Shown here: piece after piece, positions 11,570 to 39,433 of the stretch
Numbering within the stretch: position 1 is the first letter of the stretch
Layout of the letters: the number at the start of each line of letters is the position of its first letter
From: Lachnospiraceae bacterium
GTDB taxonomy: Bacteria; Bacillota; Clostridia; Lachnospirales; Lachnospiraceae
Direction of reading: 5' to 3'
Length of the DNA: 43,597 nucleotides
Assembly (NCBI GenBank): GCA_045657025.1
Contig: JAZOSF010000175.1
Location: 1 to 43,597, forward strand
The notes under the pieces: generated by a model
The model's database searches: none
The model's input: the letters and a program-made list of their open reading frames with translations, nothing else
What the model was told of the DNA's origin: nothing
Made by a program: the position numbers and the translations under genes

Positions 11570-11825
11570 TTATAAAAATATAAAATCCCCTGCATATATT
11601 GCAATACATACAACATATGCAAGGGACGTAAAATACGCGGTTCCACCCTTGTTGTCTGAGTATAACTCAAACCACTTCATTCTCCTTAACGCGGAAAGAC
11701 GGACTGTATTAAAGTCACTCCGAGGTGGTCTTCACTATGTTCCTTCTAAACTGCTCACAGCAAATGCAGTTCTCTCTGTAAGAATCAAACAAAGGTACTA
11801 TCCTCATCAACGTTTTCAATATATA
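11570..11825 (-). promoter_or_regulatory. T-box riboswitch leader (Thr, specifier ACC) with terminator at 11570-11626
   Basis: Minus strand shows the T-box motif AAGGGTGGAACCGCG (core 11648-11636), stem I elements (AGAGAG, CUGUGAGCAG) and a specifier-loop context GAAG-ACC-A (ACC at 11729-11727). The terminator is UCCCUUGCAUAU-17 nt-AUAUGCAGGGGA followed by UUUUAUAUUUUU. Confidence 0.85.
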
Positions 11826-19480: not shown

Positions 19481-21786
19481 TAGCCTGTCGTCCTTTCAAT
19501 ATCAATGATACTGTCAATTGTTTGCAACTTATCAATAATATGATTTAATTCCTCACGGGAAGCAATTTCAAAAGTAGCCTGCAAGGTCGCAATACTATCC
19601 TTTGAAAGTCTACTGTTCAGAGATAAGATATCGATATTTTTCTCTGTAAGGACCTTGGAAATGTCCGCAAGGAGACCATTTCTGTTATTTGCATAAATAG
19701 TAATATCTGCAAAATACTTGCCGCTTCCATTGCCCATATCTTCCCAGTCAGCATCCATCAACCGACCTCTTTCGATTTCCGGAAGTGACATAATATTGGC
19801 ACAATCGGTACGATGAATAGAAATACCACGTCCTCTGGTAATGAAACCAACAATTTCATCGCCCGGTACAGGGGAACAACACTTGGAAAAACGTACTGCC
19901 ATATCATGGATACCTTTTACGGTAATACCATTCTTGGCTTTCATCTTCAATGCCTGACTTGCTGCATTTTCCTCAATAGCCGCCAAAATCTGCTCATTGG
20001 TAAGCTCTTTTTTGTTATCTCTGTCATAAAGTTCTTGCATACGGTTGACGATCTGTCCTTCTTTCAAACCGCCATGTCCTATAGCTGCCAAAACGCTGTC
20101 CCAATCGTGGAAACCATATTTTTTCATAATGGCTTCCTTGTAATTTTGCTGCATTATTTGAGAAATATTGATAGACTTTGTCTTACAATATGTTTCCAGT
20201 AATTCCTTACCTTTTAATATATTATCTTCTTTGAATTCGTTTTTAAACCACTGATTGATTTTGTTTTTTGCCTGGGTAGACTTTGCAACTTTTAACCAGT
20301 CACGGCTAGGCCCTTTGGAATTCTGGCTGGTTAAAATTTCAATACAGTCGCCATTTGTAATTTCATAATCAATATTAACTAATTTACCATTAACTCTGGC
20401 ACCGATCATGCGATTACCTACCGCTGAATGAATGCTGTATGCAAAGTCAATGGTTGTAGAACCTGCCGGCAATGTCTTTACATCGCCGTTTGGGGTAAAG
20501 CAATAAACAGACTCGGAAAACAAATCCAAACCACTCTTAATCATGTTAAGGAATTCTTTGTTGTCCGCACTATCCTGCTGCCACTCCAAAATCTGACGAA
20601 GCCAAGTCATTTTTTCTTCATCACCCATATCGCTCTTTTTGCCATCGGAGGCCTCTTTATATTTCCAATGGGCAGCGATACCGTATTCTGCCGCCTTGTG
20701 CATCTCTTCCGTACGAATTTGAATTTCAAACGGCTGGCCATTAGAACCAATTAATGTTGTATGCAAAGACTGATACATATTCGGCTTAGGCATAGCGATA
20801 TAATCCTTGAAACGCCCCGGAATCGGTTTGTACATCTCATGGATAATACCAAGGGCTGCATAGCAGTCCTTTACGTTTTCTACAATAATACGAACGGCAA
20901 ACAAGTCATAAATCTGGTCAATAGACTTGTTCTGGTTTTTCATTTTCTTGTAAATACTAAAGAAATGCTTAATACGTCCGTCAATTTTAGCTTTAATGTC
21001 TGCAGAATGAATGTGTGAAGACACTTCATCTACGATGGACTCAATATATTTTTCACGAACACTTTTACGAATAGCAATTTTATCCACTAAATCATAATAA
21101 ATATCCGGCTCTAAATATTTTAAACTCAAGTCATCCAGTTCGACTTTAATACGGGCAATGCCAAGTCTTTCTGCGATTGGCGCATAGATTTCCAATGTTT
21201 CTCGTGAAATACGTTGCTGCTTCTCCGGAGGCATATGCTTTAAGGTACGCATATTGTGTAATCTATCCGCAAGTTTAATCAAAATAACACGAATATCCTT
21301 TGCCATGGCAAGAAACATCTTACGAAGATTTTCTGCCTGCATCTCAAGGCGCATGTTATCCCCATCACTAAACTGTGGTAACTTTTCTAACTTAGTAACA
21401 CCATCTACTAAATTTGCAACATCCTGGCCAAACTCATTCACCAAATCATCGTAGGACATGACGGTATCTTCCACTACGTCGTGAAGCAAACCTGCAACAA
21501 TAGTTTCTTTATCAAGTTCCAGATCCGCCAAAATTATTGCAACATAAAGAGGGTGTATAATGTAAGGTTCCCCTGACTTACGCACCTGTTCTTTATGAGC
21601 CTCGAAAGCTACACGATATGCCTTTTCAATAAGACTGATATCATCGCTAGGATGATATTTCAGTACTCTTTCGATTAAATCCTTATATAATTCGTCCGGT
21701 GTCAAGAATTCTTTCAACCTCTCGATTCTACCATCATCAAAAATAGTGGTATTTGATACACTGCCCACAGCTATTCTCTCCTCCAT
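19480..21786 (-). CDS. relA: Bifunctional (p)ppGpp synthetase/hydrolase RelA/SpoT (Rel)
   Basis: 768 aa with an HD hydrolase domain (HPLYVAIILADL..., HDVVEDT), a synthetase domain, and TGS and ACT domains. Confidence 0.97.
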   Translation of the reverse strand: MEERIAVGSVSNTTIFDDGRIERLKEFLTPDELYKDLIERVLKYHPSDDISLIEKAYRVAFEAHKEQVRKSGEPYIIHPLYVAIILADLELDKETIVAGLLHDVVEDTVMSYDDLVNEFGQDVANLVDGVTKLEKLPQFSDGDNMRLEMQAENLRKMFLAMAKDIRVILIKLADRLHNMRTLKHMPPEKQQRISRETLEIYAPIAERLGIARIKVELDDLSLKYLEPDIYYDLVDKIAIRKSVREKYIESIVDEVSSHIHSADIKAKIDGRIKHFFSIYKKMKNQNKSIDQIYDLFAVRIIVENVKDCYAALGIIHEMYKPIPGRFKDYIAMPKPNMYQSLHTTLIGSNGQPFEIQIRTEEMHKAAEYGIAAHWKYKEASDGKKSDMGDEEKMTWLRQILEWQQDSADNKEFLNMIKSGLDLFSESVYCFTPNGDVKTLPAGSTTIDFAYSIHSAVGNRMIGARVNGKLVNIDYEITNGDCIEILTSQNSKGPSRDWLKVAKSTQAKNKINQWFKNEFKEDNILKGKELLETYCKTKSINISQIMQQNYKEAIMKKYGFHDWDSVLAAIGHGGLKEGQIVNRMQELYDRDNKKELTNEQILAAIEENAASQALKMKAKNGITVKGIHDMAVRFSKCCSPVPGDEIVGFITRGRGISIHRTDCANIMSLPEIERGRLMDADWEDMGNGSGKYFADITIYANNRNGLLADISKVLTEKNIDILSLNSRLSKDSIATLQATFEIASREELNHIIDKLQTIDSIIDIERTTG

Positions 21787-24771: not shown

Positions 24772-24883
24772 AATTCAATCTTCCTCATTAAATTTATTTG
24801 TCTAGATAGTTGTACAACGATATAGTTACTCTTATACAACTTTACCATTAAATCGTTTTTCGGTCAATGAAAACCTAATAAAT

Positions 24884-24920
24884 CAATAAAAAAACATCCA
24901 CCTTTTTAGATGGATGTTTG
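24884..24920 (-). terminator. Rho-independent terminator closing the BMC-DeoR-ParA transcription unit
   Basis: Minus strand reads AAACATCCA-10 nt-TGGATGTTT followed by TTTTTATTG, 8 nt after the stop of the Lys-rich ORF. It is the first convincing terminator downstream of the promoter at 39434-39462. Confidence 0.75.
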
Positions 24921-24927
24921 CTTTTTA

Positions 24928-25248
24928 TTATAATAAATGGATAGGTAATTCTTCTGTAAGACGACAAGCCTGATTTACTGTGCTTGGTTTCTTTACTTCT
25001 ACAACTGGTGTTTCCTTTTTCACAGGCTGAACTTTATTAGCAGATGCCTTCTTTACCGGCGCTTTCTTGGTCGGTGTTGCCTTCGCAGGTGCCTTCTTGG
25101 CTGACGCTGCCTTTGCAGGTGCTTTCTTTGTTGTAGTCTTTTCTGAAACTTTTTCTGCAACAACTTTTTCTGTTACTTCTTTTTTGGTAGTTGCTGCTTC
25201 TGTGCTTAACTTTGATGCTCTTTTAATACTTCCTGCTCCTACTGCCAT
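24928..25248 (-). CDS. Lys/Ala-rich low-complexity basic protein (histone H1-like composition); candidate ParA partner protein
   Basis: 106 aa, 22 Lys by my count, no aromatic residues. Contains three tandem KKAP(A/V)K decapeptides. The ATG start overlaps the ParA stop by 10 nt, with AAGGAG 11 nt upstream. Coding status is supported mainly by the coupling and the SD. Confidence 0.6.
   Translation of the reverse strand: MAVGAGSIKRASKLSTEAATTKKEVTEKVVAEKVSEKTTTKKAPAKAASAKKAPAKATPTKKAPVKKASANKVQPVKKETPVVEVKKPSTVNQACRLTEELPIHLL
25039..25128 (-). repeat. Three tandem ~30-nt coding repeats (KKAPAKAASA / KKAPAKATPT / KKAPVKKASA)
   Basis: Read from the translation of 24928..25248. The corresponding DNA is imperfectly repeated. 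Confidence 0.7.
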
Positions 25249-26030
25249 ATGCTATCAATCTCCTTTGCAAGTTCCATATACTCTCCGGCGCTTCTTGCTT
25301 TTGCTTTGTGTACTAGGACTGGTTTACTATTGTCCTGAGCCCACTCCACTTCGCTGTCTACGCGGATAACATTTGTAAATACATGTACATTATCAGCAGA
25401 ACGTAAAGTTTCACATGTCTGCTTATAATAATTTTTGCGGGAATCCACTTTGGTAATAGCTATACCTAAAAGTTCCAACTTCTCGTTTATGTGACGAACA
25501 GCTTCCAAGAACTCAAACATATTAGCCACACCGAACAATCCCCACGGACTTGCCTCAACAGGCATAATCACATAATCCGCTGCACAAAGAATATTCATAA
25601 CCCAGCCACCTAATGTAGGCGGTGCATCAATCAAAATATAATCATATTCTTTGGAGTCTTTGATGTTCTTTAAGCAATTTTTTAAGATAAACTCTCGCTG
25701 CCATTTTGTGAAAAGTTCATATTCCATCCCACTCATAAGCATAGAGGAGGGAATTAAATCCAAGTTCTCATAAGGTGTAGAAATAATATACTCCTTTAAG
25801 TCCTCCTGCTTTTTAATAGCATAGTAAAGATTTCGTTCACTGGATGCTAACTCTAATACCTGGTCTTCTGAGAAGAAAGACAAAGATAAGTTTAACTGCA
25901 TATCTCCATCTATCAGAAGTACTTTTCTTCCCATAGTTGCCAAAGAATAACCTATATTAGCACAAGTAGTAGTTTTACCACTGCCACCTTTATTGTTTGC
26001 AAATGCAATGATTTTAGTTTTCTTCTCCAT
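25239..26030 (-). CDS. ParA/MinD-family (deviant Walker A) ATPase
   Basis: MEKKTKIIAFANNKGGSGKTTT carries the KGGxGK[ST] deviant Walker A with the signature Lys. LLIDGDMQ and ILIDAPP are the Walker A' and B blocks. Preferred start is the ATG at 26030, which overlaps the DeoR stop by 17 nt. The 26075 start would add 15 atypical residues. Confidence 0.88.
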   Translation of the reverse strand: MEKKTKIIAFANNKGGSGKTTTCANIGYSLATMGRKVLLIDGDMQLNLSLSFFSEDQVLELASSERNLYYAIKKQEDLKEYIISTPYENLDLIPSSMLMSGMEYELFTKWQREFILKNCLKNIKDSKEYDYILIDAPPTLGGWVMNILCAADYVIMPVEASPWGLFGVANMFEFLEAVRHINEKLELLGIAITKVDSRKNYYKQTCETLRSADNVHVFTNVIRVDSEVEWAQDNSKPVLVHKAKARSAGEYMELAKEIDSIWQ

Positions 26031-26790
26031 ACAGACACTCAATCCCTTTATCTTTGAAGTATTCCATCCATGCATCGGACGGACGCTTGTCAGTTACTAT
26101 CAAGTCAATATCTCTTATTTCACAAATTTGTGAGAATGCTATTTTGTCAAATTTGGTATGGTCAACTACTAATATGCGCTTGGCAGCAGAACGAAGCATG
26201 CTACTTTTAACCTGTGAAAACATGTCATTAGTATCTGTAATGCCCTTTTCCATATCAATTCCTTTACAAGACATTATCACTTTGTCTGCATTAAAGGTAC
26301 CGATACTCTCTATTGCCTTAGGACCTACCAGTGCCAGATAATTTTCCCATATGGAACCACCTGTGGAAATCACATTCCATCCTGGTACATCTACCACTTC
26401 CAACAATACTTCAATAGAATTTGTTACGATAGAGAGTCGGTTTTTGTTTTTGTCTTTTAAAGCATTTACAATAGCTACCGTAGTAGTACTCGGATCCATA
26501 ATGAGATGATCGCCATCTGAAATCAATCCGGAAACTATTTCAGCGATGATGCGCTTTCCTCGCATATTTTTCTTTTTGCGGACACTGAACGGCATATCCG
26601 TATTTTCACTTTCTACAAGAACTGCTCCTCCATATGTCTTGTTCGCCAAACCCATCTTTTCTAATTTGTCTAAATCTCTCCTGATGGTTTCCTCAGACAC
26701 ATCAAACTGCTCGCTCAGCTCACCTACTACTACTCGCTTTTCGTCTTGAAGCTTTTCCAGTATCAGATTTCTTCTTTCTACTGCTAACAT
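26014..26790 (-). CDS. DeoR/GlpR-family transcriptional regulator (FucR-like sugar-phosphate sensor type)
   Basis: N-terminal HTH (RRNLILEKLQDEKRVVVGELSEQFDVSEETIRRDLDKLE) plus a DeoR C-terminal sensor domain. Preferred start is the ATG at 26790 (AAGGAG with a 6-nt spacer). The track start at 26829 is a TTG. Confidence 0.9.
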   Translation of the reverse strand: MLAVERRNLILEKLQDEKRVVVGELSEQFDVSEETIRRDLDKLEKMGLANKTYGGAVLVESENTDMPFSVRKKKNMRGKRIIAEIVSGLISDGDHLIMDPSTTTVAIVNALKDKNKNRLSIVTNSIEVLLEVVDVPGWNVISTGGSIWENYLALVGPKAIESIGTFNADKVIMSCKGIDMEKGITDTNDMFSQVKSSMLRSAAKRILVVDHTKFDKIAFSQICEIRDIDLIVTDKRPSDAWMEYFKDKGIECLYGEEN

Positions 26791-26810: not shown

Positions 26811-27359
26811 CTATAAAATCGACTTGCAAAGTTGTGCATCAGGACGTGCAATAACGGAGCAATCCAAAAACATACCTCTCTCGCCTACGCTTGCCTTTGC
26901 CTTTTGGATAGCAGCTTCACAAGAAGCCACCTCTCCGGTAATAAGCATATAGGATTTACCACACATACCTTTTGCAATACGAAGCTCGATAAGCTTAACA
27001 ATTGCTGTCTTGGCTGCAATATCTGCTGCCACAATAATAGATGCCGCATCATAGGTCTCTAATATACCTAATGCTTTAATTTCTTCAATATGGCTACTAC
27101 CATAAATAGCCGGGAAAATAGATTCATCCGGATTGCCCAATACAAAGCTACCGATTAATTCCTCCGGTCTGGTTTTCTCTGCACAATCTACTGCTGCTTT
27201 TACAGCACTTAATTCACCTGCAATCAAAGCAATATACTTGCCCGGACATACAGTCTGTGCTTCTAGCAATTCTACCTCAGAGGTCTTAACCATCTGATCT
27301 GCCGCAGTAATACCCGCAGAAACTGTCTTAAATTCAATCATTCCGATTGCTCTAGCCAT
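26811..27359 (-). CDS. pduT: Tandem-domain BMC shell protein (BMC-T, PduT-like)
   Basis: 182 aa with two BMC domains and the conserved pore cysteine context TVCPGKY seen in Fe-S-binding PduT. Confidence 0.85.
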   Translation of the reverse strand: MARAIGMIEFKTVSAGITAADQMVKTSEVELLEAQTVCPGKYIALIAGELSAVKAAVDCAEKTRPEELIGSFVLGNPDESIFPAIYGSSHIEEIKALGILETYDAASIIVAADIAAKTAIVKLIELRIAKGMCGKSYMLITGEVASCEAAIQKAKASVGERGMFLDCSVIARPDAQLCKSIL

Positions 27360-27375
27360 GTTCTTTTTTTATCCT

Positions 27376-28695
27376 CTACTTAATAATAATATAATCCTTG
27401 GTTACTTCTTTTACCACGCCGCTCATAGATGCATGAATATTTACGGATAAACCATCTGCTGCTTTGCCAACAACATCTCCGATTTTTACAGTATCTCCCA
27501 CTTTAACAACAGCTGTGGTTGGTGCACCGATATGCTGGCTCAACAAGATTTTAACTTGCTTTGTTTCTCTGGATGAATCATCCAATTTTGCCGGCTTATC
27601 ATATGTGCCCAGTCCTAATCTTGCAAGCAGTCTGCCTTCCCATGCTCTGCGGTATTCTCTGGATGCCTTTACAGGGGCAGCCTCTACAACAGGAGGTTTG
27701 ATACCTGCCTTACGAAGGCCGTTTTTGTACTCATTAATCATAGTACGTGGTGACAAACCTTGTGGGCAGCTAAACAATTCGCACAAACCACAGGCACTAC
27801 AGAACATCGTATCCAAAAACGGATCTAAATCGTGAAAATCCTGGTTTGCTGCTGCCCGCATAAATAAATGCGGCTGTATTGGATAACCCAATGCAAATCT
27901 CGGACATAAATCTGTACAGGTCTGGCACTGGCAACAGCTGGATGCTGCTCTTGCCACTGCTGTTTTAAATCGATTTGTCTTGCGATATACTAGTGTATGT
28001 TCTTTAGGTAATACAATAATTGCATTTGTAGTCTTTGTTACAGGCTGATAGTCTTTGCCAAAGTTACCCATCATAGGTCCGCCCAATAAATAAACCGGAT
28101 TGTCGGTAGTTACTTCGCCTGCCATCTTTACAACGTCACGTATTCTTGTACCGATTGGAACGCGAACCGTAATTGGATTAGTCACTTCGCCTACCACAGA
28201 TACATACTTCTCTGTTACCGGCTTGCCCTCCCATACGGCCTGATACACATTGTATACGGTCTCTACGTTAAATACGGCTACTCCGCTTTCGATAGGCAAT
28301 CCTCCCGGACGCACTACTCTGCCGGTTGCTTCATAAATGAGAACAACTTCATCTCCCATTGGATATGCTCCCGGCAATTTATGTATACGCATCATTGGGA
28401 ACTCGCCGATATATTCTTCCAGTGCCTCAATGGTGCTTTCATATTCTTCTTTAATTCCGATAATCGCTTCTTTTGCTTGTACAGTTTCCGCAATTAAAGC
28501 AAACGCTTTTAATATCTCATGTGCGTGAACTTTTAATAACTGTCTGTGTAATTTTAAAAGAGGTTCACATTCTGCACAGTTCATGAGAATGGTATCCGCC
28601 TTGTCTGAAAGCTTCCCATAGGTAGGAAAGCCTGCTCCTCCGGCGCCTACGATACCATTCTCCCTTAAGATCTTACTTAAGCTGGCAATATCCAT
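27376..28695 (-). CDS. pduS: PduS-like / RnfC-like flavin and 4Fe-4S oxidoreductase
   Basis: 439 aa. GAGGAGFPT nucleotide motif, SLBB region, and two ferredoxin-type Cys clusters (CCQCQTCTDLCP and CSACGLCELFSCP). Confidence 0.88.
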   Translation of the reverse strand: MDIASLSKILRENGIVGAGGAGFPTYGKLSDKADTILMNCAECEPLLKLHRQLLKVHAHEILKAFALIAETVQAKEAIIGIKEEYESTIEALEEYIGEFPMMRIHKLPGAYPMGDEVVLIYEATGRVVRPGGLPIESGVAVFNVETVYNVYQAVWEGKPVTEKYVSVVGEVTNPITVRVPIGTRIRDVVKMAGEVTTDNPVYLLGGPMMGNFGKDYQPVTKTTNAIIVLPKEHTLVYRKTNRFKTAVARAASSCCQCQTCTDLCPRFALGYPIQPHLFMRAAANQDFHDLDPFLDTMFCSACGLCELFSCPQGLSPRTMINEYKNGLRKAGIKPPVVEAAPVKASREYRRAWEGRLLARLGLGTYDKPAKLDDSSRETKQVKILLSQHIGAPTTAVVKVGDTVKIGDVVGKAADGLSVNIHASMSGVVKEVTKDYIIIK

Positions 28696-28701
28696 AGTTT
28701 G

Positions 28702-28968
28702 TTACCCCAATTTTCCGATATCATCAATAATACCAACGATAGCAGCATCAATAGGAGAATCTGCAAGGCCACAACCAATTCTGGCTGCACTTCCCTGTGC
28801 TACTAATACATACTCACCGATACCGGCTCCAATGTTATCAATAGCAACTATCTGCTTGTGTTCTCCATCCATTGTCTTTATTGGTTCAATTACCATGAAC
28901 TTATTACCAACCAGGTTGTCCTGTTTGCGTGTGGAAACGATACTTCCCATTACTTTTCCAATAATCAT
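28702..28968 (-). CDS. BMC vertex pentamer (BMC-P, EutN/CcmL/PduN family)
   Basis: MIIGKVMGSIVSTRK... is a typical EutN N-terminus. The track start at 28995 is a TTG with no SD, so I prefer the ATG at 28968. Confidence 0.88.
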   Translation of the reverse strand: MIIGKVMGSIVSTRKQDNLVGNKFMVIEPIKTMDGEHKQIVAIDNIGAGIGEYVLVAQGSAARIGCGLADSPIDAAIVGIIDDIGKLG

Positions 28969-29008
28969 TTTCTTACTCGTTTCTGACTGCGTCAAATTCT
29001 ATAAATTT

Positions 29009-29653
29009 CTATTTAATAACTACCACTTTATCGCCCTGCTTGATTTCACTTGCATTGGCTTCATCTGTATCAATGTGCATTTCCAATGTAAAGGATTTGT
29101 CTACACGGATTTTAACATTGTTAAATGTGGTGCCGCGCTCATTTTCTACTCTTACGCTTACATAATCACCATCGTTTACTCCGCATGCTGCGGCATCTGC
29201 CGGTGACATGTGAATATGTCTGGCTGCTACAATACAGCCTTCTTTACAATAAACAGCTCCCTTAGGGCCAACAATAGCAATCGGTGCAGAGTCTTTAATA
29301 TCTCCGGATTCACGGATTGGAACATTGATACCTAATTTTCTGGCGTCTGTGCTGCTGATTTCTACCTGTGTACTCTTACGGGCAGGTCCTAAAACTCTTA
29401 CATTTTCAATTGCACGAAGTTTCAAACCTACGATTGTACAGCATTCGTTAGATGCAAATTGTCCGCCCATCAGTTCCTTTTTCTTGGTAAGCTGATATCC
29501 CGGACCAAACAATGCCTCCACATGCTCCTGTGACAAATGAATATGTCTGTTGCTGACACCGACAGGAACCATGAAACCATTGCTTTTTTCTTTTTCCTGC
29601 TGTATACAGGAAATCACCAATTTGGTTAAGGCTTCCAATTCATTTCTTTCCAC
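29009..29653 (-). CDS. pduL: Phosphate propanoyltransferase PduL with N-terminal encapsulation-peptide-like helix
   Basis: 214 aa, GTG start with an AGGTGA SD. Duplicated PduL motifs (VGVSNRHIHLS and ARHIHMS). N-terminal ELEALTKLVISCIQ. Confidence 0.92.
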   Translation of the reverse strand: MERNELEALTKLVISCIQQEKEKSNGFMVPVGVSNRHIHLSQEHVEALFGPGYQLTKKKELMGGQFASNECCTIVGLKLRAIENVRVLGPARKSTQVEISSTDARKLGINVPIRESGDIKDSAPIAIVGPKGAVYCKEGCIVAARHIHMSPADAAACGVNDGDYVSVRVENERGTTFNNVKIRVDKSFTLEMHIDTDEANASEIKQGDKVVVIK

Positions 29654-29687
29654 TTAGTTCACCTGTTACCCTTCTAAACTTGATAAC

Positions 29688-29736
29688 CAGCTGCAAAAGT
29701 ACAGCTGACCGGGAGCGCCGCAAATGACACTCCCGG
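29688..29736 (-). other. Two adjacent stem-loops in the shell-gene/pduL intergenic region
   Basis: Minus strand reads CCGGGAG-14 nt-CTCCCGG (29736-29709), then CAGCTG-8 nt-CAGCTG (29707-29688). No U-run follows. Confidence 0.5.
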
Positions 29737-29765
29737 CAACATATTTATATGTATATCACCTATAC

Positions 29766-30044
29766 TTATTTGATAGCAGGAAGAATGCCTTCTACATCTG
29801 TGTGTGGACGTGGAATTACGTGCTGAGCAACTAACTCACCAAGTCTTTCTGCGTTCATAGCACCAGCTTCTACTGCAGACTTAACAGCGCCTACATCACC
29901 GCGTACCATAACTGTTACTAAACCGGAACCGATTTTCTCTGTACCTACTAAAGTAACGTTTGCTGCCTTACACATTGTATCAGCTGCCTCAATAGCTGCT
30001 GTAAGACCTCTTGTTTCTACCATTCCTAATGCTTCCTGTGCCAT
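29766..30044 (-). CDS. BMC-H hexameric shell protein (PduA/EutM-like)
   Basis: 92 aa. [50 protein letters not shown] is canonical Pfam00936 sequence. Confidence 0.95.
29881..29957 (-). repeat. 77-nt block near-identical (1 mismatch) to 30586..30662 in the paralogous shell gene
   Basis: Direct comparison of the two stretches shows 56 identical nt, one C/T difference, then 20 identical nt. Confidence 0.9.
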
Positions 30045-30135
30045 AGTTTTATCCTCCTTACTTATGTGCCAGTTTTGTTGTTAATTTGTGCTGTTTTACA
30101 GCTAATATTATACTGTATTATTACAGTTATTTCTA

Positions 30136-30459
30136 CTATTTTTTTGTTCCGTTTCCGGATTGTTTCTTTTGGATGCGCTTAGCACTTTTTGCTACCAGCT
30201 TGCGTGTCTCTTCTTCCGGAGATGCAATAACACCGGATGCTGCCAAAATATGATTATTTGCTTTGCAAATATTTGCAGCAGCTTCTACTGCAGCTTTTAC
30301 GTCAGATACCATACCTTCCACGATAATGGTAACCAAACGGCCACCCATCTTACGTTCCCAGGTAACAAGTCTAACATCTGCCGCCTTACACATTGCATCT
30401 AAAGAATCCATTGCAGCAACCACACCGGAAACTTCAATTAATCCGTATGAGCTACCCAT
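30136..30459 (-). CDS. BMC-H shell protein with basic pore loop and Lys-rich C-terminal tail
   Basis: 107 aa. BMC domain (GLIEVSGVVAAMDSLDAMCKAADVRLV), pore region WERKMGGRL in place of EKIGSGL, and the tail KLVAKSAKRIQKKQSGNGTKK. Confidence 0.88.
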   Translation of the reverse strand: MGSSYGLIEVSGVVAAMDSLDAMCKAADVRLVTWERKMGGRLVTIIVEGMVSDVKAAVEAAANICKANNHILAASGVIASPEEETRKLVAKSAKRIQKKQSGNGTKK

Positions 30460-30464
30460 TCTTC

Positions 30465-30749
30465 TTATGCCTCAGGGAATCCCGGAAGAATCTTTTCTAC
30501 ATCTGCATGTGGGCGTGGGATTACGTGCTGAGCAACTAATTCACCAAGACGACTTGCTGCTGCCGCGCCGGATTCTACTGCTGCCTTAACAGCGCCTACA
30601 TCACCGCGTACCATAACTGTTACTAAACCGGAACCGATTTTTTCTGTACCTACTAAAGTAACCTCAGCAGATTTTGTCATTGCATCTGCAGCGTCAATTG
30701 CTGCGGTAAGTCCTCTTGTTTCTACCATTCCTAATGCTTCTTTTGCCAT
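30465..30749 (-). CDS. BMC-H hexameric shell protein (PduA/EutM-like), paralog of 29766..30044
   Basis: 94 aa with canonical BMC-H sequence. Shares long identical DNA blocks with 29766..30044. Confidence 0.95.
30586..30662 (-). repeat. 77-nt block near-identical to 29881..29957
   Basis: See the paired repeat feature at 29881..29957. Confidence 0.9.
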
Positions 30750-30798
30750 GTTTAATAGCCTCTCTTTCTTATAACTCTAAATAATATAATTTACTTTT

Positions 30799-31116
30799 TT
30801 AATTTGTGTCAAAGCCACAAATATTTAACATTTTTAATGTATCACTGGTTGGTCTTGGAATTATATGACTCTGTACGACTCCTGTTGTTCGCTTCGCCAT
30901 CTCAATTCCGGCTTCTACCGCTGCGGTTACGTCTTCTACGCTGCCGCGGAACTTTATTGTTACCAAAAGCGGTACCTTCAAGGTTTCTGCGTTTGCAGGC
31001 TTGTTTTTATCGAAAGGTTCCAATGTTACATTGGCTGCCTTACATCCCGCATCTGCTGCCATGAATGCACAAACAACACCATAAACCTCCAGGATCCCTA
31101 CTGCTCTTTCATCCAT
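30799..31116 (-). CDS. Divergent BMC-domain shell protein with an expanded Lys-rich pore loop
   Basis: 105 aa. BMC core ([28 protein letters not shown] ... FRGSVEDVTAAVEAG ... HIIPRP). The canonical GSG pore turn is replaced by EPFDKNKPANAETLKVP. Confidence 0.8.
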   Translation of the reverse strand: MDERAVGILEVYGVVCAFMAADAGCKAANVTLEPFDKNKPANAETLKVPLLVTIKFRGSVEDVTAAVEAGIEMAKRTTGVVQSHIIPRPTSDTLKMLNICGFDTN

Positions 31117-31149
31117 ATTAACTTACCTCTCACAATTACAGGATTAAAA

Positions 31150-32367
31150 TTAATCCATGTAAACTGCAACCTTAAGGCCGGTCATTGCAAGATTCTTCTT
31201 GTATGCATCATCAATCTTGCTTAATGGATATCTGTCTGTAATCAGTTCGCTCATTGGAAGACCAATTGCTTTTGCGCTCTTTAAGAATTCAAAAGTAGTT
31301 GCATAGTCACGAAGTGTGTACACCCAGCTTCCTACTGTTGTGATTTCTTTTGCACAAATATCAAAGTGTGGGTTGATAGTTGCATCACCGCCGTTGATGA
31401 AGAAACCAAGCTCACATAAACCGCCACCCTTACGGATAAACTTGTAAATGTTTGCGTGACCTACAGGAGAACCTGTACACTGGAATGCAAAGTCAGCGAG
31501 GTGTCCGTCGAACTTGTCGTAAACGCCTTTTGCCATTTCTTCAGCGCCATTGTAATCTTTGAAGTTTACAGTATCGCTTGCGCCAAGTCTCTTTGCAAAT
31601 TCCAAACGGCCTGCATTACCGTCAACAGCAATAATGTTGCCAATACCCATGGTGTGTAAAATAGCAATACAAATCAAACCGATAGGTCCACAACCCTGTA
31701 CTACAACACGGCTGTTAAATCTTAATATACCGGTTGTCTTTGCACGCTCTACCGCATGAATTAATACAGCACATGGCTCGATTAAAATACGGGAATCCAA
31801 ATCCAAATCACTTACGTTAAAGAATGTGGAACCCTTGCGGCTAATTAAAATATAGTCTGCAAACCATCCGTTAAGATGAATATCATCATCCGGAACCAGA
31901 CCGTATACATCAGCGCCATCACCAACGTTTTGCTTATTTAAGTCAAACATAGTAATGTCAGGATCATCCTTGAAAATCATACAGGTAACAATCTTGTCAC
32001 CAACTTTCACTTCTTTACCTGCGCTGTCTTTTTTAACATTCTTACCCATCTTTACGATTTCGCCGGTACCTTCATGTCCCAAAGCTACAGGAATGAGTCC
32101 AAATGGGTCGCGCTTGTATTCGTGTGCATCTGTACCACAGATACCACAACCTTCTACTTTTACAAGAATATCATCATCGCCAACTTCCGGCATTGGATAT
32201 TCTTTGATTTCAACAGTCTCAAGAGCTGTAAGCATGGCAACATGTGCTGTCTTTGGAATCTCTCGACTGCCTTTGGAAGCTACTACGTTTGCTGCAGGAG
32301 CAGAACTGTTTAACTGGCTTAATACCTGTTTAACAATAGCTTCAACCTGAGAACTATTCATCTCCAT
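31150..32367 (-). CDS. Zn-dependent (MDR family) alcohol dehydrogenase with N-terminal encapsulation peptide
   Basis: GCGICGTDAHEY, GHEGTGEIV and GCGPIG are the MDR Zn and NAD motifs. Preferred start is the ATG at 32367 (GGGAGG SD), giving the N-terminus MEMNSSQVEAIVKQVLSQL plus an Ala/Ser linker. The track start at 32445 overlaps the upstream gene. Confidence 0.9.
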   Translation of the reverse strand: MEMNSSQVEAIVKQVLSQLNSSAPAANVVASKGSREIPKTAHVAMLTALETVEIKEYPMPEVGDDDILVKVEGCGICGTDAHEYKRDPFGLIPVALGHEGTGEIVKMGKNVKKDSAGKEVKVGDKIVTCMIFKDDPDITMFDLNKQNVGDGADVYGLVPDDDIHLNGWFADYILISRKGSTFFNVSDLDLDSRILIEPCAVLIHAVERAKTTGILRFNSRVVVQGCGPIGLICIAILHTMGIGNIIAVDGNAGRLEFAKRLGASDTVNFKDYNGAEEMAKGVYDKFDGHLADFAFQCTGSPVGHANIYKFIRKGGGLCELGFFINGGDATINPHFDICAKEITTVGSWVYTLRDYATTFEFLKSAKAIGLPMSELITDRYPLSKIDDAYKKNLAMTGLKVAVYMD

Positions 32368-32383
32368 TATTTTTTCCTCCCGT

Positions 32384-33769
32384 CTATCTGATACATAAGC
32401 TGTCTGACATGGTACAGCGTCTGCTCTTTGTAAATGTAGATGCACTGGTCAAACCTTCACCGGTACGACTTGCGATTGTAAAGGTTGGGAAACCTTCGCC
32501 TCCGAAACCGAGTGCTGCATATGATGGACCGTTCTTTACTAAAATCGCAGTATCCATTGCTCTGGCATATTCTGTGATTCTATCCACATTCTTGGAATGA
32601 ATGTGTGCGGAATGGCGATTACCATGCTCTAACCAAACAGCTGCTTCTACTGCTTCTTTGAAGTCTTTAGCTCTTACAATACCAAGAATTGGCATCATAA
32701 GCTCTTCTGCAATGAGCGGATGTTCCTTTGCTCCTTCGAAAATAATACAACGAATATTGTCCGGTACATCAACGCCTACCATACTAAGCAATACTTTTGC
32801 ACTTCGGCCTACACACTTACGATTCAAAGCACCTTTTTCATTGAAAACGGTCTTTACTAATTTGTCTTGAACTTCTTTGCTTGCTAAATAGCAACCCTGC
32901 TCTTCTATCATGTAATTCATCAGCTGGTCGCAAATTGCATCAACTGCAATTACTTCCTTTTCTGCGATACATGGAAGATTATTGTCAAAGGTACATCCGT
33001 TTATGATGTCCTCTGCTGCTTTTCTTACATCTGCAGTTTCATCTACTAATGCGGGTGGATTACCTGCACCTGCTCCGATACCGCGCTTACCGCTAGATAA
33101 TACGGCTGTTACTACGCCAGGACCGCCGGTAGCTACAAGTAATGGAATATCTTTGTGCTTCATCATTACTGCACTGGAATCCAAGGTTGGTTTTTCTACC
33201 GTACATGCGATGTTATCTGGTCCGCCTTCTTCTAAAGAAGCTTCGTTAATCAGATTTACTGCAAAAATGGATGTTTTTACTGCCTGTGGATGCGGACTGA
33301 ATACTACAGTATTACCGCCTGCAAGCATACCCATTGTGTTACAGAGAACGGTTTCACTCGGATTGGTACATGGTGTAATAGCACCGATTACTCCGAAAGG
33401 ACCTCTCTCTACCAGGGTGAGTCCCCTGTCACCGGACCAAGCTGTTGTAGTAATATCTTCTGTGCCAGGTGTTTTTTCTGCCACCAAAAGGTGCTTCAAA
33501 ATCTTGTCACCAACATTACCCATGCCGGTTTCATTTACGCCCATACGGGCAAATGTTTCTGCATTTTCTTTAATTTTGATACGTATTTTGGAAATAATTT
33601 TTTCACGCTGATCCATAGACATCATACGTACCACTTTTTGTGCTTCTTTTGCCTTTTCTATTGCGGTATTCATATCAGCAAATACGCCGTGCATTCCGGA
33701 AACACCTTCCTGAAGCTGCATCTTTGCCATTACTTCGCCGACAATACTTTTGATCTGGCTCTCTGTCAT
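32384..33769 (-). CDS. pduP: CoA-acylating aldehyde dehydrogenase (PduP/EutE family) with N-terminal encapsulation peptide
   Basis: About 461 aa with the catalytic-Cys region NNLPCIAEKE. N-terminus MTESQIKSIVGEVMAKM. The ATG at 33769 overlaps the upstream stop (ATGA). The track start at 33775 is a TTG. Confidence 0.9.
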   Translation of the reverse strand: MTESQIKSIVGEVMAKMQLQEGVSGMHGVFADMNTAIEKAKEAQKVVRMMSMDQREKIISKIRIKIKENAETFARMGVNETGMGNVGDKILKHLLVAEKTPGTEDITTTAWSGDRGLTLVERGPFGVIGAITPCTNPSETVLCNTMGMLAGGNTVVFSPHPQAVKTSIFAVNLINEASLEEGGPDNIACTVEKPTLDSSAVMMKHKDIPLLVATGGPGVVTAVLSSGKRGIGAGAGNPPALVDETADVRKAAEDIINGCTFDNNLPCIAEKEVIAVDAICDQLMNYMIEEQGCYLASKEVQDKLVKTVFNEKGALNRKCVGRSAKVLLSMVGVDVPDNIRCIIFEGAKEHPLIAEELMMPILGIVRAKDFKEAVEAAVWLEHGNRHSAHIHSKNVDRITEYARAMDTAILVKNGPSYAALGFGGEGFPTFTIASRTGEGLTSASTFTKSRRCTMSDSLCIR

Positions 33770-34245
33770 TTCCAAGCTATCACTTCCTTTAATAAATTTT
33801 TACCGTAAGCGCCCAAGTAGGTATCCTGCTCCGCAGTTCCACCACTGACGCCTATTGCACCAATTAAAACATCATCTACATACAGAGGCTCGCCTCCGCC
33901 GAAGATTACGATTTGTCCCTGGTTTGTATGCTGGATACCATACAGGGAACCACCCGGTGCCGCAAGCTCGGCAAGCGTTGCGGTTGACATTTGAAAAGCT
34001 ACGGAAGTATAGGTCTTATTAACTGCAATATCGTAGCTACCGATATATGCCCCATCCATACAATGTACGGCAATAGGTCTGCCTCCGGCATCAGCTACTG
34101 CTACAACAGCCTTTACACCTATACGAGCTGCTTCTGCCTCTACCCTCTCCATCAACTCTTTTGCAATTTTTAAGTTCATGGAAGGAGTTGCCTTCACCTG
34201 TTTTAACACTTCACGGACAATGCTTTCCATGTTATTTCTTTCCAT
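33766..34245 (-). CDS. GlcG/HbpS-like (DUF336, PduO C-terminal-domain-like) protein with EP-like N-terminus
   Basis: VAVADAGGRPIAV ... AVNKTYTSVAF ... GGGEPL ... IGAIGVSGGT are DUF336 blocks. Preferred start is the ATG at 34245 (AAGGTGA SD), giving the N-terminus MERNNMESIVREVLKQV. Confidence 0.85.
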   Translation of the reverse strand: MERNNMESIVREVLKQVKATPSMNLKIAKELMERVEAEAARIGVKAVVAVADAGGRPIAVHCMDGAYIGSYDIAVNKTYTSVAFQMSTATLAELAAPGGSLYGIQHTNQGQIVIFGGGEPLYVDDVLIGAIGVSGGTAEQDTYLGAYGKNLLKEVIAWK

Positions 34246-34278
34246 AGGAATCACCTTGCCTTTCCTGAAACAGGATAT

Positions 34279-35124
34279 TTATTTCATGTTTGCGATTACA
34301 TTCTTTACGATTTCAGCAACCATCTTTTCGTCTACTTTGCCTTCGTTGCCACAATCACAGCCGAAGTTGTATTCGTAACCAGGGAACTTGCTGTAATCAG
34401 CACCACCGCCGCAACTGCCACAGTTATGGCAATTTTCTTTGCCCTTGTTCAAGCATACATTTGCAGGATGTTTGCCCGGCATACCGAACTTACGACGAAT
34501 TTCATAAAGCTTCTTGATGTTTTCTTTGTCAAATTCCTTAGGACCGCCAAGCATTTTGGACTTGTAAAGAAGTTCTGCATAGAACTCTAAGCTTTCCATC
34601 TTGTGGTATGCTGCTAATAAATCTGTACTCCAGCTTAATGCACCGTGGTTTTCAAGTAACACTGCATCAAAGTATGGAAGGTACTTCTCTAAATTATCAG
34701 GAATTTCCATGGTAGAAGGCGTACCGTACTCTGCGATAGGTACGCAACCTAAAGAAATAACTGCTTCCGGCATAATAGGCTGTGTTAAAGGAATACCTGC
34801 AATTGCAAATGCTGTTGCAAAGGTTGGATGTGCATGTACTACAGCACCTACATCAGGACGCTTCTCGTATACACGCATATGCATCTTAATTTCAGAAGAT
34901 GGCTTAAAGCCTTTGTTTGCCTGAATAACATTACCTTTTGCATCAACTTTGCAGATATATTCCGGTGTCATAAAACCTTTGGATACACCTGTTGGGGTGC
35001 AAAGGAATTCATTGTCATTCAACTTTACGGAAATATTTCCATCGTTTGCTGCAACCATGTTACGATTGTAAATTCTTCTGCCAATTTCACAAATTTGTTT
35101 TTTGATTTCCATTTCGTTAATCAT
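34279..35124 (-). CDS. Class II (FucA-like) L-fuculose/rhamnulose-1-phosphate aldolase with a Cys-rich C-terminal extension and C-terminal encapsulation peptide
   Basis: Core residues 1-215 show FucA-like motifs (NDGNISV, TPTGV, VVHAHP, ENHGAL). A 63-residue tail follows: HPANVCLNKGKENCHNCGSCGGG...GCDCGNEGKVDEKMVAEIVKNVIANMK. Confidence 0.9.
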   Translation of the reverse strand: MINEMEIKKQICEIGRRIYNRNMVAANDGNISVKLNDNEFLCTPTGVSKGFMTPEYICKVDAKGNVIQANKGFKPSSEIKMHMRVYEKRPDVGAVVHAHPTFATAFAIAGIPLTQPIMPEAVISLGCVPIAEYGTPSTMEIPDNLEKYLPYFDAVLLENHGALSWSTDLLAAYHKMESLEFYAELLYKSKMLGGPKEFDKENIKKLYEIRRKFGMPGKHPANVCLNKGKENCHNCGSCGGGADYSKFPGYEYNFGCDCGNEGKVDEKMVAEIVKNVIANMK

Positions 35125-35193
35125 GGATAATTCCTCCTAATATTTGTTTGATCATATATGAAAATGATTGCTTTTAATTGCTTTCATTATCTG

Positions 35194-35640
35194 TTAATTT
35201 TGTGTTGGCTCATCTTCTGCCAACAAATAGTCCAGAATTTCCTGAACCCCTTCTCCCTTAAGAGAATTTACATGAAAAATTTTGCTTACTCCGGCATTTT
35301 CCAGCCACCTGTCCGCCAACGGGACATTTGCATCCGGCAAATCGATTTTTGTTACAATACCGATGCACTCTCTATTGGCCTGTGCCGCAACTCCTCCCGG
35401 AAACAGTGAGTATGGTTCGTTAGCCGCACACAGGATACCTACCACGTCCGCTTCGTATGTATATAATGCCAACGCTTTACTAAATCGACGACTCTGTGCA
35501 TATTCGCCCGGAGTATCAATAACACTGTCATAATAATGAACGTCCTGGGTCTTGTAGTAATGAATCTCTTCACCTCTAAGTGCCTGTGTCAAGGTTGTTT
35601 TTCCTGCTTCACTGCGTCCTATAAGTATTAACTTTTTCAT
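35194..35640 (-). CDS. pduV: EutP/PduV-family small GTPase
   Basis: 148 aa. P-loop GRSEAGKTTL and DTPGEY, with EutP/PduV length and context. The start overlaps the upstream stop (ATGA). Confidence 0.9.
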   Translation of the reverse strand: MKKLILIGRSEAGKTTLTQALRGEEIHYYKTQDVHYYDSVIDTPGEYAQSRRFSKALALYTYEADVVGILCAANEPYSLFPGGVAAQANRECIGIVTKIDLPDANVPLADRWLENAGVSKIFHVNSLKGEGVQEILDYLLAEDEPTQN

Positions 35641-36011
35641 GTCTTGGTAATTGGGCAGACTGTATAGCCAAGCTTTTCACCGCAATACTCGCGAACCGCT
35701 TCCATAGAGGCCTGCACCTCACTTACGGTGCCTGTAACAATAAGAGAACCACTAAAACGGTCAACAAAGCCCAATGTAACACCACTTGCTTTTAATGCAA
35801 CATCTGCCATAATAATAGCTGTTTCGGAAGGTGTAACCGTTGTAACACCGATTGCCGCCTTCTGATAATCAATCTTCGGATCTAAACCCAATTTTTTATA
35901 GAGAATCGGTTCCGGACTTGCAATAATATGTGCAAGTGTAATCTGACAACCAGGAACGTATTCCTGTATGATTCTCTCACGATCTTCTTTTAATACCCTC
36001 GATAAATCCAT
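35637..36011 (-). CDS. pduU: Circularly permuted BMC shell protein (PduU/EutS family)
   Basis: 124 aa. RIIQEYVPGCQITLAHIIASP is the characteristic PduU/EutS N-terminus. Confidence 0.9.
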   Translation of the reverse strand: MDLSRVLKEDRERIIQEYVPGCQITLAHIIASPEPILYKKLGLDPKIDYQKAAIGVTTVTPSETAIIMADVALKASGVTLGFVDRFSGSLIVTGTVSEVQASMEAVREYCGEKLGYTVCPITKT

Positions 36012-36041
36012 ATTTCCTCCTCATGCCTACGTCTCTGTGTC

Positions 36042-36836
36042 TTAGCCGCCTATCTGGCAGGTCAGCCTAGATACCTGTTCCACAACTTTTTTGAGCATTT
36101 CCATATGCTCCGGTTCCGGCGGAAGTACATCCTTCATCAGGTATTCTCTGCCGAGTCCGTCATATTTGTCCTGTCCCAATCTGTGGTAAGGCAATAAGTG
36201 AATTTTGCCCACACCGGGCAGCTTGTCTGCAAACTGGGCAATCCCCTTTATTTCCTCCGGTGTATCGTTAAATCCCGGAATAACCGGAACTCTTATTACT
36301 AATTTTGTTTTGCCGGAAGCAGCAATCTTACGAGCATTTTCCAACATCAGCTCATTGCTTTTTCCAGTAAATTCTTTGTGCTTGATAGGATTCGTATGCT
36401 TAATATCCATCAAATACGTATCCAGATAAGGTAAGATATCCTCTATCACTTCATAAGGTGCACATCCCATGCTCTCCATCGCTGTGGTAACCCCCACGGC
36501 TTTGGCTGCCATAAGAAGAGCTTTGGCAAACTTAGGCTGACACAAGCTTTCGCCTCCGGAAAGAGTAATGCCACCACCGCTTCTGCGGTAATAATCACGG
36601 TCCTTTTCGACCACCTGCATAACCTCTTCTACCGTAACATCCTTGCCAATCACCTTTGGCTTACCTTCTACGAGCATGGTCTGAATGTCATATTCCTGTG
36701 ATTCCGGATTACAACACCAGCGACATCTGAGCACGCATCCTTTTAAAAATACGATGGTGCGTATACCGTCTCCGTCATGAATGGAATAGCGTTGAATATC
36801 GAAGATACGACCCTTTGTCTTTAAAATATCTTCCAA
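36042..36836 (-). CDS. Glycyl-radical enzyme activating protein (radical SAM)
   Basis: 264 aa. IFDIQRYSIHDGDGIRT and the CVLRCRWCCNPE cluster motif. TTG start 7 nt after a perfect AAGGAGG. Confidence 0.93.
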   Translation of the reverse strand: MEDILKTKGRIFDIQRYSIHDGDGIRTIVFLKGCVLRCRWCCNPESQEYDIQTMLVEGKPKVIGKDVTVEEVMQVVEKDRDYYRRSGGGITLSGGESLCQPKFAKALLMAAKAVGVTTAMESMGCAPYEVIEDILPYLDTYLMDIKHTNPIKHKEFTGKSNELMLENARKIAASGKTKLVIRVPVIPGFNDTPEEIKGIAQFADKLPGVGKIHLLPYHRLGQDKYDGLGREYLMKDVLPPEPEHMEMLKKVVEQVSRLTCQIGG

Positions 36837-36850
36837 ACCGCTACCTCCTT

Positions 36851-39376: not shown

Positions 39377-39433
39377 AACCAAAACCTCTATCTAAATATT
39401 AAAAAAACAACAATAATCCACACTTATATATAC

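Follow-up and report, generated by a model that had tools for sequence, protein, structure and literature searches.

A candidate ParA-based positioning module for a rhamnose/fucose glycyl-radical microcompartment in Lachnospiraceae

The ParA ATPase and its partner gene

The window analyzed here is a stretch of 43,597 nucleotides (positions 1 to 43,597 of contig JAZOSF010000175.1, assembly GCA_045657025.1) from a Lachnospiraceae bacterium. On its minus strand it carries a bacterial microcompartment (BMC) locus whose tail encodes a ParA-family ATPase and, directly behind it, a small protein that we refer to as the adaptor. This ParA/adaptor pair is a well-supported candidate for a system that positions the microcompartment. 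The idea was raised in a first-pass annotation of the window, made from the letters alone, which had proposed a dedicated pair tied to the BMC locus; all of the in silico checks that it suggested favor that proposal, in that the ParA belongs to a specific clade and the pair keeps its synteny with PduT and DeoR. Read along the minus strand, the cluster tail consists of a PduT-like tandem BMC gene (26811-27359), a DeoR-family gene (26014-26790), the ParA gene (25239-26030), and a 106-amino-acid (aa) open reading frame (ORF) (24928-25248). The spacing between the PduT and DeoR genes is 20 nucleotides (nt), the ParA ATG overlaps the DeoR stop by 17 nt (ATGGAGAAGAAAACTAA), and the ATG of the small ORF overlaps the ParA stop by 10 nt (ATGGCAGTAG), so that the gene order, the gap, and both overlaps given in the first-pass annotation stand as described. 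Full-length ParA homologues (263 aa, 100% coverage) support the start at 26030. The features of the pair and of its immediate surroundings are as follows.

25239-26030, minus strand: ParA-family ATPase of 263 aa, from a dedicated adaptor-linked clade (Pfam AAA_31, 6e-56; CbiA, 3.5e-21)
25968-25991, minus strand: deviant Walker A motif KGGSGKTT, residues 14-21, with signature Lys14 and P-loop Lys19 (read from the sequence)
25431-25448, minus strand: VDSRKN segment with Arg198 (HMMER alignment to Soj structures; Arg invariant in 36 homologues)
24928-25248, minus strand: 106-aa disordered adaptor candidate, stop codon included (ORF, family alignment, AlphaFold2)
25210-25248, minus strand: N-terminal peptide MAVGAGSIKRASK of the adaptor, proposed ParA-binding or ParA-stimulating element (conservation, analogy to Halothiobacillus neapolitanus McdB)
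25039-25128, minus strand: three KKAP(A/V)K decapeptide repeats, residues 41-70, in the variable linker (Tandem Repeats Finder)
24931-24966, minus strand: C-terminal motif CRLTEELPIHLL, proposed cargo (shell) docking element (conservation)
26014-26790, minus strand: DeoR-family regulator, its stop overlapped by the ParA start (Pfam HTH_DeoR and DeoRC)
26811-39382, minus strand: microcompartment operon, the presumed cargo (Pfam scans)
24882-24919, minus strand: intrinsic-terminator-like hairpin and T tract directly 3' of the adaptor gene (inverted-repeat scan)

The hallmarks of the ParA/MinD superfamily (deviant Walker A, Walker A', and Walker B) are all present in the window ParA, and the model matches listed above bear out its earlier assignment as a ParA-type ATPase. 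The sequence NKGGSGKTT, noted in that annotation, spans residues 13-21; the other ATPase motifs, DGDMQ (residues 41-45) and YDYILIDAPP (residues 129-138), are nearly invariant across 36 homologues. Among these BMC-linked homologues, 87 of the 263 ParA columns are invariant, and the invariant segments include NNKGGSGKTT, DGDMQ, PVEASPWGL, EWAQD, and the Arg of VDSRKN. This last residue, Arg198, is aligned by HMMER with the Arg of the DGR segment in Thermus thermophilus Soj. It also aligns with Arg189 of Bacillus subtilis Soj, the residue needed for nonspecific DNA binding.

The best solved relatives of the window ParA, which is ~35% identical to Soj, are Soj-type ParAs (8ray, 2.5e-33; T. thermophilus Soj, 2e-27), and the McdA-like protein 6noo, the sole McdA-like sequence compared, scores 3e-14. 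An NCBIfam scan returned generic ParA models only, with no equivalog above its cutoff. Since the alignment to the Soj structures reaches residue 258 (it covers residues 3-258 of 263), the protein appears to have no C-terminal membrane-targeting extension; this, together with scores far below the cutoffs for the NCBIfam MinD models, argues against a MinD-type membrane ATPase. A role in antiphage defense was also considered and rejected, the PADLOC match being at the level of the P-loop only.

The adaptor-linked ParAs share 60 to 85% identity with one another, and their identity to the nearest plasmid-collection ParAs does not exceed 43%. The closest outside ParAs (41 to 43% identity) are encoded in Acetoanaerobium noterae (L105:3986-5693, a 2.6-Mb record) and on a Clostridium estertheticum plasmid (L104:2498-3542); the former has the unusual NNKGGSGKT Walker A and the latter NQKGGCGKST. 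The ORF that follows encodes 95 aa in C. estertheticum and 322 aa in A. noterae, the latter ParB-like in appearance, and neither belongs to the adaptor family. Read by eye, the two sequences suggest partition-type partners. Because the closest outside ParAs thus precede partition-type-looking ORFs, the BMC-linked ParA may derive from a partition ATPase of Firmicutes that exchanged its original partner for another.

Conserved termini and variable linker of the adaptor

The window adaptor is an 11-kDa protein with 22 Lys, 18 Ala, and no Phe, Trp, or Tyr, a net charge of +15, and an isoelectric point (pI) of 10.2. The composition and the three decapeptides are as the first-pass annotation had counted them, and Tandem Repeats Finder places a 30-nt period in 2.2 copies at 25064-25128. 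The Lys/Ala repeat character that had been taken to define the protein is real in the window copy and is not conserved: in the family only the termini are. The KKAPAK repeats show no conservation and are missing from most homologues, and the linker is hypervariable, with whole-protein lengths of 63 to 248 aa and net charges of -2 to +18 among 36 sequences and a pI down to 5.7 in homologues.

Conservation was counted over 36 unique adaptor sequences drawn from genomic loci. V3, G4, S7, I8, and R10 are invariant (36/36), and 34 of the 36 carry K or R at position 9, so that the basic N-terminal peptide noted earlier proves to be an invariant family element, MxVGxGSI[KR]RA. At the other end, the core [LM]P[IV][HYF]L[LM] closes the protein in 35 of the 36 adaptors. 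Of these sequences, 21 have H at position -3, 12 have Y, and 2 have F; in the wider family, 80 members have H there and 57 have Y. Acidic residues precede the core: the window copy ends in TEELPIHLL, with Glu at -8 and -7, and across the family -8 is E in 28/36 and -7 is E or D in 28/36. Two deviating copies deserve mention. The adaptor ORF at L033:6217-6408 encodes 63 aa with an unrelated basic C terminus and may reflect a frameshift, decay, an assembly error, or a pseudogene, and the adaptor at locus L034 has the terminus variant ...KLPVHLM.

A search of 5.8 billion proteins recovered 38 adaptor relatives, none of them named and none with a Pfam domain. Their alignment shows a constant MAVGAGSIKRASK N terminus, a C[HR]LTE[ED][LM]P[IV][HY]LL C terminus, and a freely varying middle. 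A profile search of 1.84 billion cluster representatives extended the family to 141 members, the clusters being drawn at 50% identity, with a wider consensus of M-x-[VI]-G-x-x-S-[IML]-x-R at the N terminus and [LM]P-x-[HY]-[LFY]-[LFMY] at the C terminus. Compared with the annotated families of Pfam and NCBIfam, the adaptor has no detectable sequence similarity above cutoff, and it has no match in the plasmid collection.

The adaptor is predicted to be intrinsically disordered. AlphaFold2, run with the family alignment, gave a mean predicted local distance difference test score (pLDDT) of 57.5 and a predicted template modeling score (pTM) of 0.14, with a lone short helix at residues 93-99, and 66% of the residues in the window copy are disorder promoting; the structure prediction suggested in the first-pass annotation thus fits its expectation of disorder. 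The small ORF is under purifying selection at the protein level, as indicated by a ratio of nonsynonymous to synonymous polymorphism (pN/pS) of 0.24 at the termini and by synonymous codon turnover there: the invariant Pro (-5) and Leu (-2) are each written with 4 different codons, and synonymous codon variation occurs at G6, S7, I8, and R10.

We considered whether the adaptor C terminus might be an encapsulation peptide and rejected this reading, because the motif contains Pro and is unlike the amphipathic peptides on the cargo enzymes of the operon; it therefore suits external docking rather than internal packaging. Encapsulation-peptide-like segments in the window (29009-35124) are found at the C terminus of the aldolase (DEKMVAEIVKNVIANMK) and at the N termini of the alcohol dehydrogenase (SSQVEAIVKQVLSQL), the aldehyde dehydrogenase (TESQIKSIVGEVMAKMQ), PduL (ELEALTKLVISCIQQ), and the HbpS-like protein (MESIVREVLKQV).

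Distribution, arrangements, and surroundings of the pair

To follow the pair across genomes, we queried a species-level scan (one genome per species) with the two conserved peptides of the adaptor. It returned 21 loci, all of them from Lachnospiraceae metagenome-assembled genomes, and all 21 have the order PduL-EutN-PduS-PduT-DeoR-ParA-adaptor, followed by differing downstream genes. Two ParA-centered lookups gave an identical context. In the window's clade, the pair follows PduT-DeoR at 36/36 loci, with DeoR between PduT and ParA, and the adaptor is preceded by ParA in every arrangement that we examined. The first-pass annotation had asked for a survey of such co-occurrence with shell genes. 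The association it expected is complete in the window's clade and, within 10 kb, is not seen in two distant arrangements, described below.

A DeoR-centered metagenome scan recovered 80 loci of the GRM5 type, the class to which the window cluster belongs. ParA follows DeoR in 13 of these and does not in 61, a count that covers at most 6 kb downstream of DeoR; the remaining 6 contigs are too short. The adaptor is present at 12/12 post-DeoR ParA loci with enough DNA. Given the 61 contigs, the ParA module is not obligatory after DeoR. To call them loci without ParA would be too strong, because loci of the Roseburia faecis type carry the pair on the upstream side.

In a neighbor-joining tree of PduS, PduT, and DeoR, the ParA loci fill two neighboring clades, with three nested exceptions, and a large, mainly human-gut clade has no ParA downstream of DeoR. 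The exceptions are L029:2357-6000, L045, and L046; at the first of these, the genes after DeoR are one of the AraC type in the opposite orientation and one for a fucose isomerase. Their nesting among ParA-bearing loci indicates that the module was lost or moved several times. Separately, the DeoR frame at L006:4201-4968 has an in-frame stop and may represent an assembly error or a pseudogene.

Other arrangements came to light from distant family members. In contigs of the R. faecis type, the pair ends a fucose operon (FucI, ABC transporter, FucU, FGGY kinase, ParA, adaptor) that precedes the BMC operon by ~1.2 kb. Within the assembly index, 19,672 blocks contain the R. faecis adaptor, which one source names as a Roseburia faecis hypothetical protein. 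The BMC operons beside it (L106:9220-20372 and L108:9220-20258) read BMC, PduV, aldolase, HbpS, aldehyde dehydrogenase, alcohol dehydrogenase, four further BMC genes, PduL, EutN, PduS, and PduT, where the sequence ends; no glycyl radical enzyme or activase is encoded in the 10 kb upstream, and these may be aldolase-type fucose compartments that lack a diol dehydratase. In another distant arrangement, the pair closes a glycyl-radical microcompartment (GRM) operon that has a different gene order, with PduV immediately before it. Of the two shell-less arrangements, one comprises an alcohol dehydrogenase, an aldo-keto reductase, ParA, and the adaptor, near fucose transport genes, and the other an acetyltransferase, ParA, the adaptor, and an iron-type alcohol dehydrogenase (Fe-ADH).

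In the window itself, the operon encodes, in order, a glycyl radical enzyme, an activase, a BMC protein, PduV, a class II aldolase, an HbpS-like protein, an aldehyde dehydrogenase, an alcohol dehydrogenase, four BMC-H proteins, PduL, EutN, a PduS-like protein, and the PduT-like tandem BMC protein, and the cluster is a rhamnose/fucose glycyl-radical (GRM5-type) locus. The PduV/EutP GTPase gene that the first-pass annotation had placed in the locus lies within the operon at 35194-35640. One of the BMC-H proteins (30136-30459) has a long basic C-terminal tail (RKLVAKSAKRIQKKQSGNGTKK) that the other three lack, a possible surface feature with a bearing on how the acidic EELPIHLL motif would dock. 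On the 5' side of the operon lie genes for an AraC-type regulator, an FGGY kinase, and RhaA, and between RhaA and the operon lie a terminator-like hairpin (39524-39492) and then a promoter-like site (39462-39434). From this promoter-like site to the cluster end, the best minus-strand terminator-like site is the hairpin directly behind the adaptor gene, where an earlier reading had put the terminator; its stem (24919-24892) has 12 pairs, 4 of them G-C, and its tail is written TTTTTATT / TTTTTATTGAT. A further promoter-like site lies near the PduT/DeoR junction (26838-26810), and a possible internal shell-gene promoter (30783-30812; TTGACA, 18 nt, TATATT, 11/12 matches) lies just 5' of the second BMC-H gene, both of them consensus matches only.

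The remainder of the window consists of housekeeping genes (L20, IF3, three tRNA synthetases, and RelA), which places the locus on a chromosome. Within it we noted a T-box leader (124 bits) at 11619-11819, 5' of the threonyl-tRNA synthetase gene, and a minus-strand 553-aa ORF (11878-13539) that has no Pfam match at an E value of ≤1e-5. A minus-strand tRNA gene (43372-43443) overlaps the 5' end of the called AraC-family ORF (42334-43452), and the true start of that ORF must therefore be further downstream.

Whether the pair is cotranscribed with the shell genes is uncertain. In Clostridium phytofermentans, the characterized GRM5 organism, deoR is induced ~2-fold compared with 15- to 87-fold for the BMC genes and was judged to be a separate transcript, and the locus as described ends at the DeoR gene (PMC3557285). 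The first-pass annotation had placed the pair at the end of the BMC operon: the position after PduT-DeoR is as it said, and membership in the same transcript is unproven, given that judgment. Because the pair overlaps deoR, its expression may track that of deoR, with or without readthrough from the induced operon, and because the C. phytofermentans deoR is barely induced by fucose or rhamnose, the pair may escape coinduction with the shell.

Positioning model, alternatives, and known systems

We propose that the pair is a two-component positioning system for the rhamnose/fucose microcompartment, McdAB-like in its action and of independent ancestry, and we put the probability of this at roughly 0.6. 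Building on the observed motifs, their conservation, the gene pairing, and the linkage to BMC loci, we infer by analogy a cycle of ATP-dependent DNA binding, peptide stimulation, shell docking, and ratchet behavior. The ParA would bind ATP through its deviant Walker A (Lys14 and Lys19) and dimerize, and the ATP-bound dimer would coat the nucleoid by nonspecific DNA binding, as the invariant Arg198 and the apparent lack of a membrane-targeting extension suggest. The N-terminal peptide of the adaptor, MAVGAGSIKRASK, with K9 and R10, would contact the ParA dimer and, on the model of Spo0J/ParB, MinE, and McdB, trigger ATP hydrolysis and the release of the dimer from DNA. The C terminus (...EELPIHLL-COOH) would dock on the shell exterior or on a shell-associated protein such as PduV, and the basic, disordered linker of variable length might, speculatively, provide reach and multivalency. 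An adaptor-coated compartment would then deplete ParA locally and move up the ParA gradient, with the result that compartments would repel one another, spread over the nucleoid, and be shared between daughter cells, with no polar clumping.

A more ambitious version, on which our judgment is evenly balanced, holds that the dedicated ParA clade and a previously undefined adaptor family (MxVGxGS[IM]xRA, a variable disordered linker, and a C-terminal [LM]P[IV][HY][LF][LFM]) constitute the first nucleoid-based system for the positioning and inheritance of a catabolic metabolosome. Such a system would have arisen independently of McdAB, would operate in parallel with PduV, and would occur very commonly among Roseburia of the human gut and in other Lachnospiraceae, with the His/Tyr motif serving as a new shell-docking tag.

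Several points weigh against a positioning role. No ParA lies within 6 kb downstream of DeoR in 61 of the GRM5-type contigs, and in the two distant shell-less arrangements the pair has no shell genes within 10 kb. The window adaptor has His at the position where McdB needs Trp and where McdB-like proteins have Tyr or Phe, and the ATPase shows no specific relationship to 6noo, the one solved McdA-like protein. The pair may not be coinduced with the shell genes, and the partners of both adaptor termini are ones that we infer. Finally, a 2026 study found Salmonella Pdu compartments to be indifferent to ParA, MinD, and heterologous McdAB (PMC12866334); since neither ParA nor MinD is required there, other means of distributing metabolosomes exist.

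The retention in the ParA of all DNA-binding Soj-type features, including Arg198, bears on a first alternative, namely, that the pair acts on the microcompartment without a nucleoid ratchet. The adaptor would then be a shell-bound anti-aggregation or assembly factor (a spacer, a condensate former, or a chaperone), and the ParA would regulate loading, compartment number, or turnover. This would be expected to produce the same genomic association with BMC genes and would give a use to a long, charged, disordered linker; McdB proteins, moreover, form condensates and have been discussed as anti-aggregation factors (PMC8359340). The charge of that linker, however, varies from -2 to +18 and is not conserved, which argues against a function through linker chemistry. 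Together with the intact DNA-binding features, this makes the alternative unlikely in our view.

A second alternative is that the pair positions or regulates another component of the fucose/rhamnose regulon, such as a transporter, an enzyme cluster, or DeoR itself, and that its proximity to shell genes reflects shared regulation. The overlap with deoR is consistent with this, as are the R. faecis-type loci, where the pair ends a fucose transport and kinase operon rather than the shell operon, and the two arrangements in which the pair neighbors genes for an alcohol dehydrogenase or an aldo-keto reductase and no shell gene lies within 10 kb. However, one pair stands directly after PduV in a GRM operon without surrounding sugar-transport genes, and at every locus of the window's clade the pair comes after the last shell gene and DeoR. 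The cargos of ParA/MinD ATPases are also typically large assemblies, among which the compartment is the obvious one here, and we regard a different cargo as distinctly improbable.

The first-pass annotation had itself listed two alternatives, and neither fares well. A histone H1-like nucleoid-associated protein accompanied by an orphan ParA would fit the pI of 10.2 and the KKAPAK repeats of the window copy, and weak compositional matches to Pfam HC2 (E = 7e-4), the NCBIfam H1-like model, and Rv3852 point the same way. These matches score 20.2 bits against a cutoff of 40, 23.6 against 80, and 28 against 100, respectively; neither the repeats nor the high Lys content is conserved, with homologues down to a charge of +1 to -2 and a pI of 5.7, and an H1-like protein would not need the conserved terminal peptides, so that we hold this reading to be very unlikely. 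That the pair is what remains of a decaying plasmid or chromosomal partition module with no current function is scarcely credible, even though the closest outside relatives of the ATPase are plasmid-collection ParAs and a parS-like site lies 3.7 kb away (21196-21211, 2 mismatches), given that the pair is kept across deep divergence (ParA identity, 60 to 94%) with its catalytic motifs intact, that the adaptor is under purifying selection among chromosomal housekeeping neighbors, that domain scans and AlphaFold2 gave no ParB-type helix-turn-helix (HTH) or ribbon-helix-helix partner and the plasmid collection no adaptor match, and that a repeat scan beside the genes found no iteron or centromere-like repeats. 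The palindromic site in question, TGTTTCTCGTGAAATA (2 mismatches to TGTTNCACGTGAAACA), lies inside the relA/spoT gene and is probably due to chance, as 4 of 100 shuffles matched as well.

The positioning reading matters because PduV has so far been the only factor proposed for the spacing and inheritance of catabolic microcompartments, and McdAB-like genes near metabolosome loci had been noted only in passing. A direct test is straightforward, since the pair offers two short peptides that can be mutated, an N-terminal one with R10 and a C-terminal one with His104. The number of index blocks that hold the R. faecis adaptor (19,672) means that the finding concerns abundant gut fermenters of fucose and rhamnose that make propionate and propanol. 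If the C-terminal motif does dock on shells, it would serve as a compact tag with which engineered metabolosomes could be decorated and made to inherit their spacing, and the His/Tyr motif could target proteins to the metabolosome exterior.

Among known systems, the pair most resembles McdA/McdB in its architecture, a ParA-family gene followed by a gene for a small, disordered, compositionally biased partner, in or next to a BMC locus. The H. neapolitanus alpha-McdB is ~10 kDa, ~95% disordered, and monomeric (PMC8359340), in size and disorder similar to the window adaptor. The likeness extends to the basic N-terminal peptide and to a short conserved C-terminal motif in which acidic residues precede a ring-bearing residue. 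For H. neapolitanus McdB to interact with McdA, its first 20 residues are both required and sufficient, with a critical role for Lys7 (PMC12139897); McdB is directed to carboxysomes by a C-terminal motif that combines an invariant Trp with acidic residues close by (PMC11321042). The differences are equally clear. Neither protein has detectable homology to its McdAB counterpart, the McdA side having been compared through 6noo only. The adaptor hallmark is [LM]P[IV][HY]L[LM], with His in the window copy, rather than the invariant Trp. The C-terminal aromatic residue (Trp in carboxysome McdBs, Tyr/Phe in the last 4 to 5 residues of non-carboxysome McdB-like proteins) is replaced in the window by His104, and many relatives have the Tyr/Phe version, since their position -3 is Y or F. 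The cargo would differ as well, being a glycyl-radical metabolosome with a catabolic role in an anaerobic Firmicute. The earlier label "McdAB-like" therefore holds for the architecture and as a proposed mode of action, not for ancestry: the ATPase is nearer to Soj-type ParAs, and the adaptor has no detectable similarity to annotated families.

The concept itself has been published. MacCready et al. (2021; section 2.9 and Fig. 8f) describe McdA/McdB-like sequences in or near four non-carboxysome BMC types (PMC8359340), and Basalla et al. (2024; Fig. 4) describe McdB-like proteins of PDU and GRM loci with Tyr or Phe in the last 4 to 5 residues and acidic residues nearby (PMC11321042). The putative McdAB-like genes at PDU, GRM, and EUT loci thus share both concept and locus type with the window pair, and the Tyr/Phe description fits many family members, such as those ending in ...PIYLL and the R. 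faecis terminus ...MPIYFF, a comparison made by description only. Unlike the present work, these published accounts give no family definition, distribution, or description of an ATPase clade. Reviews repeat the McdAB-like proposal for non-carboxysome BMC loci, and Axen et al. (2014) had noted ParA in BMC loci, though not among the conserved GRM5 accessory genes (PMC4207490). In the literature up to 2026, we found no report of an experiment on a ParA system for a metabolosome, which is the part of the first-pass annotation's novelty claim that survives; because the bioinformatic observation was already published for GRM and PDU loci (PMC8359340, PMC11321042), novelty is lower than that annotation had assumed.

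Soj/ParA and Spo0J/ParB supply the closest solved relatives of the ATPase, which shares their deviant Walker A and DNA-binding Arg. B. subtilis Spo0J begins MAKGLGKGINAL, and the adaptor N terminus, MAVGAGSIKR, resembles the ParA-stimulating peptide at the N terminus of ParB. The pair differs from ParABS in that its partner protein has no ParB or HTH domain, no parS accompanies it, and the locus lies in a sugar-catabolic cluster. PduV, for its part, was proposed to move Pdu compartments (Parsons et al., 2010, as cited in PMC8262871). The PduV/EutP GTPase resembles the pair in being encoded in the same operon, in its proposed positioning role, and in standing directly upstream of the pair in one arrangement; it differs in having an unrelated fold, in using a different nucleotide, and in being present whether or not the pair follows DeoR. 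New relative to all of these systems are the definition of the adaptor family and of its ParA clade, the several genomic arrangements of the pair, its abundance in gut Roseburia, and the alternation of His and Tyr in the C-terminal motif.

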